From an uncultured bacterium (lineage in GTDB: Bacteria; Hydrothermota; Tepidihabitantia; Tepidihabitantales; CAIPLT01): DNA of 13,368 nucleotides. The DNA is taken from the NCBI GenBank assembly GCA_964642595.1, contig CAZXRM010000021.1, positions 1-13,368 on the forward strand. The letters are read 5' to 3'. Under the pieces are notes generated by a model that ran no database searches, was not told the DNA's origin, and saw only the letters and a list, made by a program, of their open reading frames with translations. Positions 1,481-13,368 of the stretch are shown one piece after another. Positions within the stretch are counted from its first letter, which is position 1; every line of letters begins with the position of its first letter. Made by a program: the position numbers and the translations under genes.

Positions 1481-1590
1481 CAAAGCTCAAAACTCAAAGT
1501 GCAAAACCTCAACTCAAAATTCAAAGTTAATTCTATCTGAAATTTTGAGCTTTTAGCTATAGTTTTGAGTTTTGACATTTGAGTTTTGAG
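1481..1590. repeat. Two inverted arrays of about seven heptamers each (CTCAAAR at 1481-1526; TTTTGAG at 1543-1590), separated by a 16-nt spacer
   Basis: Read directly from the sequence. The core CTCAAAACTCAAA (1486-1498) is a perfect 13-bp complement of TTTGAGTTTTGAG (1578-1590). The right array encodes the C-tail of the 365-aa protein. The left array lies in the region immediately 5' of the activase start. Confidence 0.75.
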
Positions 1591-2654: not shown

Positions 2655-3562
2655 TGTAATTGGGGTGTGGGGATTTGGGAATGGGGGTTAGTATTTCTAC
2701 GGATAATATCAGCAAATGCTTCGATGCGGGTGTTGATTCCGGTTTTAGAAGTATGCTCGTCAATAACCAATTGCAGAAACGGCAGTTTATATTCACTTGC
2801 CTGTTTCATCATTATTTCACTTATCAAAGAATCAGGACCGCATCCGAAAGAAATAATATTACATACCCCGTCAATTTTATCTAAATTATAGTGAAAGGCA
2901 TTATAAAGTTCCCGTTCGTAAACCCATTTGATATTTTTTGCAAATCCCTGTTCAGAATTGAGGATTTGGGGTGATAAATTTTCTTTGGTGGTAATTGCGA
3001 AATTATTAGATTGGAATAAGTTTATAATATCTTTGCTGATAAAATCATCGGACAGGTTATAAAAATGGCTCAAAAGCAGGATTTTTCTCTGATTATTATT
3101 AATCTTTGATTCTTTAGGATAATCCGATAGATAGGGCAGTCCATTTTTTAGAGCATTGATTGTTTTTACGGGATTTTTTGTTAATTTTAATCCGGTTATA
3201 AAATGGGGATATAGAAAATTATTTTTAATAGTTGGTGAAAGAATCTTACATACACTGCCTGCCTGAATTCTCGCAATATCAACAATCCCAATCATTTTCG
3301 GGCAGGTGTGAAGACCAGAATTGAGATTTAAAAACCGGGGTAAAAAGATATGGTCAACTTTATCTTTGAGAAATTCGATGTGACCGCAGATAATTTTAAT
3401 CGGCAGGCAGATTTCGCTTGACACTTTTTTCAGACCCTGCTGTAAAATATCGTTATTGGTCGGGGGCGAGATTAAATAGTCGATGCCCAGCCCCTGAAAA
3501 AATTTTTCCCAGAACCGGCCATAACGAAAATAAAATAAAGCACGCGGTATCCCGATTTTCAT
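2651..3562 (-). CDS. Activase-associated partner subunit, paralog A (DUF2229-like); first gene of the operon
   Basis: A 303-aa ORF. Its N-terminus, KIGIPRALFYFRYGRFWEKFFQGLGIDY, is of the type I recall from 'acyl-CoA dehydratase activase-related' proteins. It carries S-E-I-C-L-P-I-K-I, I-S-F-G-C-G-P-D-S and V-I-D-E-H-T-S-K-T-G-I-N-T-R-I-E-A-F. The C-terminal tail NTNPHSQIPTPQLQ is encoded by the G-rich element at 2659-2693. Confidence 0.7.
   Translation of the reverse strand: MKIGIPRALFYFRYGRFWEKFFQGLGIDYLISPPTNNDILQQGLKKVSSEICLPIKIICGHIEFLKDKVDHIFLPRFLNLNSGLHTCPKMIGIVDIARIQAGSVCKILSPTIKNNFLYPHFITGLKLTKNPVKTINALKNGLPYLSDYPKESKINNNQRKILLLSHFYNLSDDFISKDIINLFQSNNFAITTKENLSPQILNSEQGFAKNIKWVYERELYNAFHYNLDKIDGVCNIISFGCGPDSLISEIMMKQASEYKLPFLQLVIDEHTSKTGINTRIEAFADIIRRNTNPHSQIPTPQLQ
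2659..2693. repeat. G-rich dispersed element, copy B (AATTGGGGTGTGGGGATTTGGGAATGGGGGTTAGTA); canonical G4 motif with four G-runs and loops of 3, 4 and 3 nt
   Basis: It starts AATTGGGG and ends GTTAGTA, as copy C starts AATTGGGG and ends GTTTGTA. It sits at the junction of the two partner genes and encodes ...NPHSQIPTPQLQ*. Confidence 0.6.
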
Positions 3563-3574
3563 ATTCTATAATCA

Positions 3575-3633
3575 ATTGTATAACCTGCGTGTAAAATGTC
3601 AACTATTGACATAATTTCAGAAAATCATATAAT
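3575..3633. promoter_or_regulatory. Divergent sigma70-like promoters; their -35 hexamers form the 17-bp inverted repeat ATGTCAA-cta-TTGACAT
   Basis: Plus strand: TTGACA (3606-3611), 16-nt spacer, TATAAT (3628-3633), 46 nt upstream of the pilT ATG. Minus strand: TTGACA (rc of 3597-3602), 16-nt spacer, TACAAT (rc of 3575-3580). This places a transcription start only ~5-8 nt before the ATG at 3562, giving a near-leaderless mRNA. Confidence 0.55.
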
Positions 3634-3679
3634 ATCATTATAATTGAGTGAGAATATTTACTTAAACGATTTATAACTT

Positions 3680-4798
3680 ATGGCAAATAATGACGAAAAG
3701 TTTTTTGATGAACTTCTCGACGAATGCGTCCGTCGAAATGCTTCTGACCTTCATTTAACTGTTGGACTTCCCCCAGTATTAAGAATTGATGGTGTTTTAA
3801 GACCGATTGAAAAATCAGCAGTTCTGACACCGGATGTAACCAATCGCATCAAAGATATTACAATTGAAAATGCGCCGCAGATAAAACATCTGGTCACCGA
3901 AGACGGCGGCGCAGATTTTAGTTTAGCATATAAAGACCTTGCTCGTTTTCGGGTCGCTATTTACCGCCAAAAAGGTCATTATGGCCTGGCTTTGCGTCTT
4001 ATTCCCAATAAAATATTACCGTTTGAAGATATTGGTTTTCTTGCCAATCAAGTTCCGAGAATAAAAAATCTCTTAGACCGTCCACATGGTTTGATACTGG
4101 TAACTGGTCCTACCGGTTCGGGCAAGACGACGACCCAGGCAACTTTTGTTGATTATATTCTGGAGAGTCCGCGGCATGTTTTAACTATTGAAGACCCGAT
4201 TGAATTTGTACACAATCATAAAAATGGTTTGATTACCCAGCGCGAAGTCGGTGTTGATGTGCCTTCGTTCCGCGAAGCGATTATGAAAGGTCTGCGTTCC
4301 AATCCTAATGTTATATTGGTTGCTGAAATCCGAGATGTAGCAACCGCCGAAGCAACAATTTGGGCAGCGGAATCAGGGCACTTGGTAATTGGCACATTGC
4401 ATACGACTAATGCATCCGAAACAGTTACGCGGTTTATTGATGTTTTTCCACCGGAAATTAGAGACCAGATTCGAATTCAATTCTCGATATCATTGCTGGC
4501 GATTTTTGCGCAGCGGTTATTACCCAGAGCGACCGGTAAAGGACGGGTTGGAGTATTCGAAATAATGATTGCGACACCAGCCGTGCGTAATCTCATCCGG
4601 GAACGGAAAATCGAACATTTACCGTCAGCCATTCAATCATCAATTGCCGAAGGAAGCTGTACTTTTGATAGCGCATTGGCAGAATTATACCGAGCCGGAA
4701 AAATCACATTTGAAATGGCATTGATGAACGCTTTTGACCCAAGGGCATTACGCGAGCTGGTTGAATTTGGAATGAAGAGCAGATACGCACACCGTTAA
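3680..4798 (+). CDS. pilT: Type IV pilus retraction (twitching motility) ATPase PilT
   Basis: DLHLTVGLPPVLRIDG N-domain motif. Walker A LVTGPTGSGKTTT. TIEDPIEF, REVG, His-box GHLVIGTLHT and TPAVRNLIRE are all PilT/PilU hallmarks. At 372 aa the length is right for PilT. Confidence 0.88.
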   Translation: MANNDEKFFDELLDECVRRNASDLHLTVGLPPVLRIDGVLRPIEKSAVLTPDVTNRIKDITIENAPQIKHLVTEDGGADFSLAYKDLARFRVAIYRQKGHYGLALRLIPNKILPFEDIGFLANQVPRIKNLLDRPHGLILVTGPTGSGKTTTQATFVDYILESPRHVLTIEDPIEFVHNHKNGLITQREVGVDVPSFREAIMKGLRSNPNVILVAEIRDVATAEATIWAAESGHLVIGTLHTTNASETVTRFIDVFPPEIRDQIRIQFSISLLAIFAQRLLPRATGKGRVGVFEIMIATPAVRNLIRERKIEHLPSAIQSSIAEGSCTFDSALAELYRAGKITFEMALMNAFDPRALRELVEFGMKSRYAHR

Positions 4799-10109: not shown

Positions 10110-11084
10110 TCACCTCACTTCACTTAATTTATTTGGAAAGATTTGTATTTCCTGTTTTAATAATGTACCGGTTTTTAATTCAACGGTACTATTAATGATT
10201 TGAATAAGTTCATAAACATCATTAAAATCTGCATTGTTTTGATTTATTATAAAATTGCCATGCTTTTCCGAAATACAGGCGCCTTTAATTTTCAATCCCT
10301 TAAGCCCACAATCATCAATTAATTTACCAGCAGCAGCGATTGATGGATTTCTGAATACTGAACCAGCTGATGCACCGGTGGGCTGGGTTGCTTTTCTTTT
10401 TAGTTGATACTCGTTAATCTTCCGTCCGATTTTTATTTTGTTACCAAATTCCAATTTCAATTTGCCATGAGTTATAACAAAACCATCTGGCAAATTTGAT
10501 TTACGATATTTAAAATTTAATTCTTTTCGGGTAAGTATTACATCTTCGCCAGTACTTGATATTCCATTGATTTGTTCGATTAAATCTCCGATGTTCTGTG
10601 AAAACGCACCGGCATTAGAATAAATTGCCCCGCCGAATGAACCAGGAATTCCCCAGACGAATTCGATACCGGATAAAGATCGGGCAACCGCATATCGAAG
10701 CAGTTTTGACAAAGGTGTCGCGGCGCCAACAGACAATTGGGGATTAGAGATTAGGGGTGGGGAGTTTGTATGTGCTGACACTATATTATCGAATGCTTTG
10801 CCAAGTTTGATTGTAATTCCTTTTAATCCTTGTTGCGATATCAAAATATTTGAACCTTGACCGATTATGAAATATGGAATTTTTTCTTGATGGGAAAATT
10901 GCAATATCCTTTTCAGGTCGTCTGAAGAATTGATAATAACCAAACATTCAGCATTGCCACCGATGTGAAATGTCGTGTACTTAAATAGTGGTTCGTTCCA
11001 CAGTACTTTAGTTAATTCAGACTCGCCTCGCTGAGTCGAAGCGGGAGTTATAATATTTTTAATAATTCTTCGCCAATCTGCCAT
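10110..11084 (-). CDS. murB: UDP-N-acetylenolpyruvoylglucosamine reductase MurB
   Basis: YTTFHIGGNAE FAD-binding N-terminus. GQGSNIL, GIPGSFGGAIYSNAGA and GACISEKHGNFIIN motifs. SD AGGAG is upstream. The ORF contains an in-frame G-rich element at 10735-10764 encoding SPPLISNPQL. Confidence 0.9.
   Translation of the reverse strand: MADWRRIIKNIITPASTQRGESELTKVLWNEPLFKYTTFHIGGNAECLVIINSSDDLKRILQFSHQEKIPYFIIGQGSNILISQQGLKGITIKLGKAFDNIVSAHTNSPPLISNPQLSVGAATPLSKLLRYAVARSLSGIEFVWGIPGSFGGAIYSNAGAFSQNIGDLIEQINGISSTGEDVILTRKELNFKYRKSNLPDGFVITHGKLKLEFGNKIKIGRKINEYQLKRKATQPTGASAGSVFRNPSIAAAGKLIDDCGLKGLKIKGACISEKHGNFIINQNNADFNDVYELIQIINSTVELKTGTLLKQEIQIFPNKLSEVR
10735..10764. repeat. G-rich dispersed element, copy C (AATTGGGGATTAGAGATTAGGGGTGGGGAG) in frame inside murB
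   Basis: Its reverse complement is translated in the murB frame as (N)SPPLISNPQL. The tail P-Q-L from CCC-CAA-TT is the same as at copy B. Confidence 0.6.
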
Positions 11085-12433
11085 ATATTACCTGCTCCTA
11101 ATGTAATAATAACATCATTTGGTTTAATTATGTTTAATAAATAAGTTATGATATCCGGAAAACTTTCTTTATAAATTATTTCTAAATTGGGCATCTTAGT
11201 TTTTTTATTTGTTGTGTTTTTTATCGCATCAATAATAATTTCGGATGTTATACCGGGAATGGGTGTTTCGGAGGCAGAATATATCTTGGTCAATACAAGA
11301 TTATCAATCGAGTTAAAGCAGTTTTGGAAATCATTTACCAAAAATTTCGTTCGGGTGTAACGGTGCGGTTGAAAAATAGTTATAATTCTATTATTGGGAT
11401 AGGCATTGCGTAAGGTGGTAAGAGTTGCTTTTATCTCAGTCGGATGATGCCCATAATCATCATAGATGCTTATATTATTTTTTTCGCCTTTGAATTCCAG
11501 ACGGCGATGAACGCCTTTAAAATTTTCAAGCGACTGGATGATTTGAGACAGTGAAATTTCGAGTTTCAAACCAACGCAAATTGTTGCCAATGCATTTTTA
11601 ATATTATGTTTGCCGGCGACATTAAGTTTACAGTCAAGTGATTGACCATTATACCGTAAGGTAAATCGTGAGCCAAAATTTAAAAGCTTAATATTTTCAG
11701 CACGCACCTGAGCGTTCTTATTGATACCAAAAGTGATGTATTCTCTTTTAATCATCGGTATTACTTTACGGACTTGCGGGCAGTCAATGCCAAGAATCGT
11801 CGAGCCAAAAAATGGAGTTTTATTGACAAACCGAATAAATGCTTTCTTAATTTCCGAAATATTACGGTAATAATCCAGATGTTCGCGTTCGATATTTGTC
11901 ACAACCGCAATGGTCGGATAAAGCAATAAAAATGAGCGGTCACTTTCATCGGCTTCCGCAATCAAGTATTGACCGGTACCGAGTTTTGCACCGGAATTCG
12001 ATCCCAGAACTCGTCCACCAATGATAATCGTCGGATTAAGACCAGAGTCTTCCAACATTGTTCCGACCATTGATGTGACGGTTGTTTTGCCATGAGTTCC
12101 GGATACGGCAATGGAAAATTTCATTCTCATTAATTCGGCTAACATTTCGGCACGGGGGATAACTGGTATTTTATTTGCCAAAGCATATTGGATTTCTGGA
12201 TTATTTTGGTTTATTGCCGAAGAATAAACGACAACCTCGGCATTCTGACAATTTGACGAATTATGTTCATAAAAAATTTTAATAGCCTGCTTTTCTAAAG
12301 TGTCAGTGAGGTTTGATTTGCTTATGTCCGAACCAGAGATATTAAATCCCATATTTTTCAGAATTAAAGCAATACCCGACATACCCGAACCGCCGATACC
12401 GACAAAATGAATATGATTAATTTTACCGAACAT
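11048..12433 (-). CDS. murC: UDP-N-acetylmuramate--L-alanine ligase MurC
   Basis: IHFVGIGGSGMSGIA N-terminal motif. GTHGKTTVTSM P-loop. The Mur ligase middle and C-terminal domains are present (DDYGHHPTE). The ORF overlaps murB by 37 nt. Confidence 0.95.
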   Translation of the reverse strand: MFGKINHIHFVGIGGSGMSGIALILKNMGFNISGSDISKSNLTDTLEKQAIKIFYEHNSSNCQNAEVVVYSSAINQNNPEIQYALANKIPVIPRAEMLAELMRMKFSIAVSGTHGKTTVTSMVGTMLEDSGLNPTIIIGGRVLGSNSGAKLGTGQYLIAEADESDRSFLLLYPTIAVVTNIEREHLDYYRNISEIKKAFIRFVNKTPFFGSTILGIDCPQVRKVIPMIKREYITFGINKNAQVRAENIKLLNFGSRFTLRYNGQSLDCKLNVAGKHNIKNALATICVGLKLEISLSQIIQSLENFKGVHRRLEFKGEKNNISIYDDYGHHPTEIKATLTTLRNAYPNNRIITIFQPHRYTRTKFLVNDFQNCFNSIDNLVLTKIYSASETPIPGITSEIIIDAIKNTTNKKTKMPNLEIIYKESFPDIITYLLNIIKPNDVIITLGAGNIWQIGEELLKIL

Positions 12434-12435
12434 TT

Positions 12436-13368
12436 TTATTGTTTATGAGTTAATGGATTTTTGAGTTGATGGGTTGATGATGTTGTGTTATTTAATATAT
12501 GTTGTGCGATTTTTTCCGCCGAATCAATTTTTGCAAGAGCAAATGCATTTTTACTCATTTCGTTTAATTTGTTTTTATTATTTATTAATGATTCAAGGAT
12601 GTTTTTTAGTTGTGAAACAAATTCTTGAGAATATCCAGAGCGGCGGTGTTGGTCTAAAATGATTGCAGCGTTGTTTTGGGCTAAAAACTGAGCATTCGCT
12701 GCTTGGTGGTTATCTGTGGCAAATGGGAAGGGAATAATTATGGATGGGATACCAAAAACTAATATTTCTGATAAGACCATACCGCCGGCTCGGGATATTA
12801 CAATACTCGATTTTTCGTAATACGTTTCTATGGACAAAGTAAAATCAATTAACTGACAATTATTTGATTTTACTAATTGTTTGATTTTCTCATAATCACG
12901 CTTGCCGGTCTGAATAATAAAATTCAGTTCCGGCATTTGTGCGGCAAGTTCTACAATATTTAAATTGATAAAACTCGCACCCTGACTTCCGCCAAGAACT
13001 AAAATAGTCTTGCCATCATCTTTTCGTTTGTGATTCAATACTTCGAGACGCAATGGATTTCCAGTATAAACAGTTCTTGCCTTAATCTTTTTCAGTAATG
13101 GAAATCCAAGAAATACCAACTTTGCCCATTTTGCAAAATATTTGGTGGTGCGACCCGGGATGCGATTTTGTTCTAATATAAAGAATTTAATATGCAAAAT
13201 CAATGACCAAAGAATCGGAACTAATGCAGTATAACCACTACTTGAGACAATTGCATCCGGTCTTTCTTTATATAAAATTTTAGGAAATATTATCATCGCC
13301 ATTATGATATTTAAGAAGAATGTAATTTTATCTTTTACACCTTTACCAAAAAAACCGCTGAATGGCAA
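12436..13368 (-). CDS. murG: MurG, undecaprenyl-PP-MurNAc-pentapeptide UDP-GlcNAc transferase; the N-terminus lies beyond the window edge
   Basis: ILVLGGSQGA and the GT-B C-domain motifs (GIPSIIIPFPFATDNHQAANA) are present. The ORF is open to the window end. It carries an unusual C-terminal tail, NNTTSSTHQLKNPLTHKQ. Confidence 0.9.
   Translation of the reverse strand: MPFSGFFGKGVKDKITFFLNIIMAMIIFPKILYKERPDAIVSSSGYTALVPILWSLILHIKFFILEQNRIPGRTTKYFAKWAKLVFLGFPLLKKIKARTVYTGNPLRLEVLNHKRKDDGKTILVLGGSQGASFINLNIVELAAQMPELNFIIQTGKRDYEKIKQLVKSNNCQLIDFTLSIETYYEKSSIVISRAGGMVLSEILVFGIPSIIIPFPFATDNHQAANAQFLAQNNAAIILDQHRRSGYSQEFVSQLKNILESLINNKNKLNEMSKNAFALAKIDSAEKIAQHILNNTTSSTHQLKNPLTHKQ

Follow-up and report, generated by a model that had tools for sequence, protein, structure and literature searches.

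A heptamer-armed palindrome between two operon genes of a WOR-3 bacterium, a probable gene-less copy of a dispersed PF05635 cassette

The window analysed here is a stretch of 13,368 nucleotides from an uncultured WOR-3 bacterium (contig CAZXRM010000021.1), carrying an operon for a DUF2229 protein, its DUF2229/HGD-D partner and a BcrAD_BadFG activase. The junction between the partner and activase genes is occupied by two inverted arrays of imperfect heptamers, which together form a palindromic element of 116 nt. This element can be regarded with good confidence as a non-autonomous copy of a dispersed palindromic cassette, devoid of an open reading frame (ORF), whose full form carries a gene of the PF05635 family. 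Its most likely status is that of a tolerated selfish insertion with incidental effects on transcript processing and translational coupling, and an adaptive role of the element in this operon is unlikely.

A dispersed cassette and its probable gene-less copies

An earlier note on this DNA described inverted heptamer arrays with the capacity to form a hairpin, and both observations are borne out. Tandem Repeats Finder (TRF) reports TCAAAAC in 6.7 copies at 1480-1525 and TTTTGAG in 7.3 copies at 1543-1592; the units are imperfect, since their matches amount to 67-75%. The arms (1480-1528 and 1541-1589) are 71% complementary across 49 nt, and their outer core, CTCAAAACTCAAA (1486-1498) with TTTGAGTTTTGAG (1578-1590), is fully paired along 13 bp. 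For the minus-strand RNA of 1470-1600, the folding energy is -34.4 kcal/mol, compared to -19.6 +/- 3.4 kcal/mol for dinucleotide shuffles (z = -4.4), and none of the 200 shuffles reached the same stability. Folding of the same region as DNA gives z = -4.25. The 14-mer TTTTGAGTTTTGAG, with up to two mismatches, occurs seven times in the window against 0.32 expected, each time within 1479-1590; the single heptamer is not enriched in the window (7 observed, 4.0 expected).

The sequence of the element recurs far from this operon. The exact 22-mer CTCAAATGTCAAAACTCAAAAC, scanned against metagenome contigs, matched at least 120 stretches, whose sources include groundwater and sediments and some of which belong to Patescibacteria. 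The neighbours of these matches are unrelated to each other (rplB-rpsS, murC, murA, recR, dnaB, pilins, a tRNA). Such matches are copies of one element, because a simple sequence repeat (SSR) cannot recreate an irregular three-unit string at so many loci. An nhmmer profile of about 113 positions, made from 19 two-armed metagenomic copies, matches the window with 85.6 bits (E = 5e-24) over model positions 2-113, including both arms, and detects 141 elements across 720 kb of metagenomic loci, several per contig. The hosts are Gottesmanbacteria, Falkowbacteria, Woesebacteria, Parcubacteria and WOR-3, the latter represented by the window, the loci L082/L083 and a degenerate copy lying between two other genes of a 51% GC genome (L039, 13883-14001). 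This defines by sequence a repeat family common to Patescibacteria and WOR-3.

The matches listed fall into 113 unique contexts: 42 two-armed copies without an ORF, 22 solo 5′ arms which open a host ORF, four strict full cassettes (about eight when frameshifted or reversed cases are included) and 45 others. The median hairpin z across the 42 two-armed copies is -3.9. Wherever two flanking ORFs were called for such copies, these were mostly co-directional (25 of 29), and the copies often lie a few nucleotides from the adjoining stop or start codon, in both orientations; the window copy conforms to this pattern. The excess of antisense over sense orientation between co-directional genes (16 to 9) is not significant in a rough binomial estimate (p about 0.2). 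Of the 42 copies, 30 fold better as the antisense strand, which allows no conclusion on the strand: the copies were selected by an exact 22-mer of the C/A-rich arm, so that all mutations are shifted to the other, G/U-rich arm, and the comparison is confounded. The RNAalifold consensus of 15 two-armed copies is weak (-4 kcal/mol, one compensatory pair) and, with an ambiguous heptamer register, uninformative on selection.

The origin of the window copy is indicated by the full cassettes (L159, L175, L184, L218, L150, L178 and the frameshifted L157/L181), in which the same arms enclose an ORF of about 130 aa. Its start codon is the ATG within CTCAAATGTCAAAAC, and its stop codon shortly precedes the 3′ arm. 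Its product matches PF05635 (23S rRNA-intervening sequence protein, E = 1e-23 to 4e-27) and TIGR02436 (four helix bundle protein, 9e-27), together with a weak profile match to the Avd protein of diversity-generating retroelements. The homology search returned 3,411 relatives, and all of the best 120 contain PF05635; named among these 120 are Patescibacteria (Woesebacteria, Microgenomates, Parcubacteria) and one DPANN record. The N-termini of the best homologues mostly read MS[KN]LK[TS]QN (in extended form MS[KN]LK[TS]QN.N.NLK), which is the translated 5′ arm. In L241, L243 and L246, which were retrieved on protein similarity alone, a 3′ arm likewise follows directly after the stop codon, so the arms are not an artefact of the search. 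The odd ATGTC unit of the window is the relic of a start codon, because the cassette ORFs start at that very ATG. The window copy encodes no PF05635 protein: its loop is reduced to 14 nt, and the relic ATG alone is left. By sequence reading, this ATG lies in a different frame from the 365-aa ORF and starts a frame of just 32 codons that ends at 1482-1480. The coordinates of the element and of the operon genes are collected in Table 1.

Table 1. Positions of the element, its parts and the operon genes within the window
Feature	Position	Strand	Evidence or remark
Whole element, gene-less two-armed copy, 116 nt	1478-1593	minus	profile match; hairpin z = -4.4
5′ arm, C/A-rich in the mRNA sense (CTCAAAA-type units)	1543-1593	minus	TRF, period 7, 7.3 copies
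3′ arm, G/U-rich in the mRNA sense (TTTTGAG-type units)	1478-1528	minus	TRF and fold
Loop/spacer between the arms, 14 nt	1529-1542	minus	full cassettes hold an ORF of ~390 nt here
Signature 22-mer CTCAAATGTCAAAACTCAAAAC	1562-1583	minus	exact metagenome matches
Relic ATG	1576-1578	minus	corresponds to the PF05635 start codon in full-length cassettes (N-terminus MSKLKTQN...)
TAG stop of the 365-aa gene	1557-1559	minus	inside the 5′ arm
Last 11 codons of the 365-aa protein (NSKLKCQNSKL), contributed by the element	1560-1592	minus	translation and orthologue alignment
DUF2229 protein gene, 303 aa	3562-2651	minus	
DUF2229/HGD-D partner gene, 365 aa	2654-1557	minus	
BcrAD_BadFG activase gene, 322 aa	ATG 1469-1467, end 501	minus	Pfam E = 3e-50

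The solo 5′ arms require caution in annotation. A host ORF with the N-terminus MSKLKT- is opened by 22 of the 67 solo arms, equal to the one-third chance rate expected from the reading frame, so that no claim can be made for exaptation of the solo-arm ATG. Such starts were seen in MurC, a NadA-like protein, GatC, an AspRS-like protein, an S1-like protein and several type IV pilins (at L130, L133, L134, L141, L174, L176, L179, L208 and others). The MSKLKT- N-termini in Patescibacteria, which gene callers will include, and the 11-residue tail of the 365-aa protein are not to be annotated as part of the biology of those proteins.

Several further observations concern the loops and surroundings of other copies. 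Different, GC-rich small hairpin repeats are nested in the element loop at L154, L155, L150 and L172, and the last of these runs on into a long perfect (CTACAAG)n heptamer array at the contig end. A second PF05635 gene, flanked by AAATTCG/CGAATTT units, lies at 3318-3731 of L178. At L241, a Y1_Tnp gene of the IS200/IS605 or RAYT type (2877-3393) is found about 1 kb from a Patescibacteria PF05635 cassette, as a mobilising enzyme or by coincidence. When five element-bearing loci were searched in Rfam with an E-value threshold, the only matches, to long AU-rich hairpins of miRNA precursors, were sub-threshold. A scan for rRNA motifs in the loci up to the metagenome set found none, and the copies in WOR-3 and the candidate phyla radiation (CPR) are not directly tied to rRNA.

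The partner/activase junction

The arrays were described earlier as covering the 3′ tail of the partner gene and the leader of the activase, and this placement is correct: the partner stop lies in the 5′ arm and the activase ATG is situated 8 nt beyond the 3′ arm. The ATG is preceded by CCTTATAAAT, without an AGGAG-like motif, which agrees with the earlier remark that this start lacks a recognisable Shine-Dalgarno (SD) sequence; an SD-like motif precedes about half of the remaining window genes. The orthologues of the partner protein are usually 349-356 aa long, with C-tails that are unrelated in the alignment; in the relatives with a repeat at this junction, the C-tail represents translated read-through of that repeat, whichever its type. 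The intrinsic terminator scan gave no site in 1470-1600, where, unlike the GC-rich stem and U tract of such a terminator, an AU-rich stem is followed by CCUUAUAAAU. The promoter scan gave no site within the element, and the TTGACA-like hexamers of its arms are, by sequence reading, without a -10 at the correct spacing. Rfam 15 at the gathering threshold gave no match in the window.

The history of the junction can be followed in 80 loci with relatives of the 365-aa protein, taken from species-representative genomes. The length of the junction was defined as the distance from the conserved RLEAF motif of the partner to the GIDVGS motif of the activase. In about 30 WOR-3 orthologues this distance is fixed at 76-79 nt, the partner gene overlaps the activase start, an AGGAG lies within the KRRK codons of the partner, and no repeat is present. 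Such an arrangement is classic translational coupling. The corresponding distance in the window is 216 nt, i.e., about 140 nt extra. The closest relatives are mostly one-armed at this junction, with units that differ from those of the window and folds that are no more stable than shuffles (z > 0). Arrays of several types were noted there: AAATTCA-type units at L003 (7904-7936) and L087 (~11050-11090), AATTCGA/AATTCAA at L010 (11039-11071) and CCTCACT-type units at L002 (11304-11332) and L084 (~11060-11095). In the Bacillota locus L069, four copies of AGGAGTC lie at the junction and a complementary CTGACTC array directly follows the activase. The partner/activase junctions seem to be colonised by repeats time and again.

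The only orthologous junction with both arms is that of L082/L083, where the partner protein is 79% identical to that of the window and the repeat is the same at both loci. Its 5′ arm contains a stretch of 33/33 nt identical to the window (91% over the arm). The 3′ arm is 77% identical, and its changes are uncompensated. The decay of the L082 copy and the lack of any structure in most orthologues speak against a selected fold; from these comparisons of sequence, if anything in the element is under selection, it would not be the fold.

These data bear directly on the explanation that the hairpin evolved in place, or was co-opted after insertion, as a regulatory structure which gates translation of the activase or sets the ratio of subunit to activase. 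Activases of this enzyme class are required in small amounts only, the fold is significant, it ends 8 nt from an ATG without an SD sequence, and the upstream stop in the 5′ arm suits coupling by ribosome unwinding. In addition, the element was kept at the same junction in a second species, above the conservation of synonymous sites. However, the approximately 30 orthologues make use of direct overlap without a hairpin, other relatives carry unrelated one-armed arrays that do not fold better than shuffles, the L082 stability was lost without compensation, and the identical sequence stands beside unrelated genes at more than 100 loci. A regulatory hairpin is therefore improbable, and the gating of the ATPase by a structure evolved at this locus, as the earlier note had proposed, finds no support in the comparison with the WOR-3 orthologues, the 120 or more unrelated loci with the same sequence and the L082 fold (z = +0.1). 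Among the findings that the same note had named as speaking against its proposal, the absence of the repeat from most orthologous junctions was indeed observed; compositional noise of an AT-rich genome was not, as the array is a defined dispersed element. The hairpin in this operon is to be understood as an insertion and not as a designed switch.

The insertion would have proceeded as follows. A copy of the cassette would have landed in the partner/activase junction in one AT-rich WOR-3 lineage, where the junction was ancestrally overlapping and translationally coupled. The sequence shows what follows from it: the partner ORF is extended by 11 codons into the 5′ arm, the ancestral AGGAG of the KRRK codons, decayed in the window, is left about 150 nt from the activase start, and an imperfect AU-rich hairpin of about 50 bp divides the cistrons, ending just ahead of the ATG. 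In the operon transcript, such a hairpin may become a substrate of the double-strand-specific RNase III, similarly to the stems of PF05635-bearing rRNA intervening sequences (IVS), and the cleavage would sever the activase cistron from the two upstream cistrons. With the stop codon of the partner gene inside the 5′ arm, ribosomes terminating there would unwind the stem and make the activase start accessible. A possible RNase processing site, also suggested in the earlier note, gains indirect support from the class likeness to the PF05635-bearing 23S rRNA IVS, and by this analogy RNase III cleavage of the hairpin in vivo has roughly an even chance.

Several points weigh against the interpretation of the element as a gene-less cassette copy with incidental effects. 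The stem is AU-rich and interrupted (13 + 11 + about 15 bp, with a 15-nt asymmetric internal loop), so that its susceptibility to RNase III is plausible and not certain, and both the cleavage and any effect on the activase would follow from analogy alone. The L082 fold has z = +0.1, compared to -2.7 for the window extracted in the same way; the 5′ arm was kept there and the stability lost. Between the window and L082, identity is 84% for the element as against 58% for the third-codon positions of the activase, for which a purely neutral passenger is insufficient; this contrast could be caused by selection on the sequence of the 5′ arm or by conversion from other copies. No target-site duplication was seen by inspection of the aligned flanks, which involved no formal test and is affected by ends that are fuzzy in AT-rich sequence. 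No transposase is associated with the copies, and the mobility itself was never observed. Finally, the narrow and broad hidden Markov models found no PF05635 ORF, and hence no autonomous partner, in about 0.8 Mb of WOR-3 loci.

Heptamer arrays around PF05635 genes

The period of seven nucleotides is not a peculiarity of this element. Among tandem arrays of at least 3.5 copies in the sampled loci, 43 of 91 have period 7, compared to 1.8 expected from a third-order Markov model, and 33 of these 43 lie in spacers or at ORF edges, while bases outside long ORFs make up just 6%. The tblastn search of plasmids with the CPR cassette protein matched 40 records, half of them from Nostoc. Among these, the flanks were inspected for 16 plasmid-borne PF05635 genes from five phyla (Nostocales, Planktothrix, Gloeocapsa, Pseudanabaena, Picosynechococcus, Euhalothece, two Bacteroidota, Chloroflexota, Treponema, Monoglobus and Azospirillum). 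All 16 genes are flanked by short tandem arrays of lineage-specific sequence, mostly of 7-nt units, mostly inverted and often perfect. Examples of such arrays are (CAATTCG)4 / (TTGCGAA)4 in N. punctiforme and (ACTGGTC)13 in Euhalothece. The units are sometimes of 6-8 nt or longer (Pseudanabaena), and the Bernardetia and Treponema flanks hold direct, not inverted, repeats. In Azospirillum, the PF05635 gene is located inside the 23S rRNA (Rfam LSU, E = 1e-123) between GACAGAG/GACGGAG units, which are nearly the Coxiella unit. A 50-kb stretch of the N. punctiforme plasmid pNPUN02, with 49 annotated features, contains no more than three heptamer arrays, two of which flank its sole PF05635 gene.

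Nearly all of the inspected PF05635 genes are placed between co-directional genes, often in defence operons. The genes annotated as four helix bundle protein at L247-L254 and L257-L264 were seen in defence or transport operons: in drmD-MmeI, hsdS-hsdR and cas10-cmr3 contexts, with DUF1156-Swt1 HEPN (in two phyla), ahead of cas1, and in an RND adaptor-permease pair. In the Dolichospermum plasmid pAfl69 (L256, 27263-33647), AATTACG/TAATTCG arrays occur about ten times, mostly inside ORFs adjoining the PF05635 gene (helicase-related, hypothetical and DNA methyltransferase), which suggests in-frame colonisation of coding sequence.

In a further explanation, the arms are an iteron-like array on DNA or RNA bound by a protein, e.g., by the four-helix-bundle protein of the cassette (an Avd relative) acting in trans, and the hairpin is secondary. 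In its favour, the sequence of the 5′ arm is far better conserved than the fold, with 33/33 nt shared by the window and L082 and the exact 22-mer found across phyla. The 7-nt period is universal around PF05635 genes and the units are lineage-specific, as if protein and site co-evolve, and the weak Avd profile match points in the same direction. On the other hand, no PF05635 gene was found in the WOR-3 loci, no replication gene is nearby, the binding is putative, and the conservation of the 22-mer is partly due to ascertainment and, in full cassettes, partly to coding constraint. A binding array as the main explanation is thus hardly more than a slender prospect. A transposase-mobilised miniature inverted-repeat transposable element (MITE) or REP-type element, for which the PF05635 gene would be an occasional passenger of the loop, is very improbable. 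The length of about 115 nt, the inverted arms, the many copies, the insertions nested in the loop (L154, L155, L172, L150) and the Y1 transposase gene near the L241 cassette would fit such an element, but in over 100 homologues the 5′ arm includes the PF05635 start codon and about 15 N-terminal codons, the 16 plasmid-borne PF05635 genes each have tandem-repeat arms of lineage-specific sequence, the inspected flanks show no target-site duplication, no transposase is consistently linked, and the partner ORF is PF05635 and no known transposase. An SSR grown in situ by slippage, its inverted copy arising by chance or template switching out of AT-rich compositional noise, has scarcely any likelihood: period 7 dominates the sampled tandem arrays (43/91) and heptamer SSRs are over-represented in many bacteria (PMC4692102), but the units are only 67-75% alike, stand in a fixed order including the ATG-bearing unit that recurs exactly at 120 or more other loci, and the window shows no enrichment of the bare heptamer outside the element.

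Slippage that alters the C-tail of the partner protein, as was envisaged in the earlier note, finds no support either. The imperfect units occur in a fixed order common to other loci, and the element is identical, with no copy-number change, in three independent strain-level assemblies (the window, L001 and L173; 99.5% identity), which therefore give no sign of slippage.

A more general rule can be put forward tentatively, at slightly less than an even chance, starting from the gene-less cassette copy of the window. The heptamer arrays, including the short tandemly repeated repetitive (STRR) sequences of cyanobacteria, would be at least largely the arms or footprints of one class of selfish cassettes, composed of a PF05635 (Avd-like) gene between inverted arrays of about 7 nt. 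Such cassettes would colonise operon junctions, often those of defence systems, and 23S rRNA helices, in the latter case as IVS, and would decay to gene-less hairpins and solo arms that are read into proteins. The 7-nt period would reflect recognition by a pentameric protein or the mechanism of insertion, and not polymerase slippage. In every case examined, short tandem arrays, mostly of 7-nt units and mostly inverted, were found around the PF05635 genes. Should this rule be valid across whole genomes, one mobile element would tie together what the IVS protein of 23S rRNA does, how rRNA IVSs arose and why heptamers are in excess in bacteria. Heptamer SSRs are over-represented in many bacteria and have been treated as unexplained SSRs (PMC4692102; bioRxiv 10.1101/2022.06.06.494920). 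In the literature searched, which was not exhaustive so that prior knowledge is possible, no link of PF05635 to tandem repeats was found beyond the Coxiella IVS, and the repeat sequence of the window was not found in a relevant context. The element family appears undescribed there; its kind, that of palindromic intercistronic repeats and rRNA IVS, is known.

The closest known system is the 23S rRNA IVS of Coxiella burnetii, Leptospira and Azospirillum. The Coxiella IVS contains a PF05635 ORF (S23p), terminal inverted repeats that form a 28-bp stem, and, directly preceding the ORF, tandem GACAGAT heptamers (PMC4990558). RNase III excises this IVS and makes its 5′ cut at the first heptamer, as was shown in vitro and mapped by rapid amplification of cDNA ends (PMC4990558). 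IVSs with a PF05635 ORF are also present in CPR rRNA genes (PMC11270868). The full-length relatives of the window element share with these IVSs the PF05635 family between stem-forming inverted repeats, arms with tandem heptamers (GACAGAT in Coxiella, GACAGAG/GACGGAG in Azospirillum), the start of the ORF at or in the 5′ arm, and the view of the element as selfish. In contrast to the IVS, the window copy is ORF-less and lies at an intercistronic junction of an mRNA instead of 23S helix 25 or 45, and its arms are longer (about 50 nt), AU-rich and imperfect. For the IVSs, excision by RNase III is established; here it would apply by analogy.

The second group of comparable elements comprises ERIC/IRU, Correia/NEMIS, REP/BIME and the Rickettsia palindromic elements (RPE), which are imperfect palindromes of about 100-150 nt with many dispersed copies that fold in mRNA. 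They are found in transcribed spacers of co-directional genes in either orientation, the RPE are sometimes read into ORFs, and the Correia hairpins are cut by RNase III. The element of the window resembles them in size, palindromy, dispersal, intercistronic location and its reading into neighbouring ORFs. It differs in showing no sequence kinship to them, in arms built of 7-nt units, in an autonomous form with a four-helix-bundle gene rather than a transposase or a REP-associated tyrosine transposase (RAYT), and in its Patescibacteria and WOR-3 hosts.

The third comparison concerns the STRR sequences and other heptameric SSRs of cyanobacteria, Xanthomonas and Beggiatoa (PMC4692102; bioRxiv 10.1101/2022.06.06.494920), which likewise consist of 7-nt units with an intergenic bias, near start or stop codons. 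They are at times present as inverted pairs, often between the same genes in related species and with variable sequence, and units such as (TTCAAAA)n and GGGGAYT recur. Arrays of this kind flank the cyanobacterial PF05635 genes inspected here. Unlike them, the window units are imperfect, fixed in order and part of a copy of a defined element; the cited papers draw no link to PF05635.

Other repeats and genes of the window

Homologues and synteny assign the contig to candidate division WOR-3. The operon has as its neighbours on the contig a PilT-like gene, plsY, gpsA, merR, Band_7, ftsZ, ftsA, murB, murC and murG. A second heptamer array, CCCCATTCCCAAATCCCCACACCCCAAT on the minus strand, is located at 2657-2695, at the junction of the 303-aa and 365-aa genes, where it is translated as the C-tail of the 303-aa ORF and sits at the SD place before the ATG at 2654. 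This type of array is kept in L082 and L084 and forms no hairpin (z = 0). In its unit, the array is similar both to the (ATCCCCA)n arm of the PF05635 cassette in Planktothrix and to the GGGGAYT repeats of Nostoc, and it may be a solo arm of another cassette subfamily.

A GATTAGG array of 3.9 copies (211-237) lies within 150-240, about 270 nt downstream of the activase stop, together with its partial complement AATCCCCTAAT (158-168); the hairpin formed by the two is weak (z = -1.6). Past the left end of the window, in the same organism, inverted TTGAATG and ATTCCAA arrays are present at 3225-3330 of L001, with a hairpin of z = -3.1. Since this pair also folds, the genome contains several heptamer-armed hairpins of differing units.

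At the murG-murC junction (12442-12480), a 16-nt unit, TTTATGAGTTAATGGA, is repeated 2.4 times in tandem; the repeat includes AACTCAAAA, and its complementarity to a segment of the element (1502-1522) amounts to 81%. In L001, GC-rich small palindromes (e.g., gggggattgaggaggatt and cgcaggctgaagcctgcg) occur at 3590-3670 and 3830-3900 within an apparent class II aldolase-type ORF of the opposite strand and may represent further small insertions in coding sequence.

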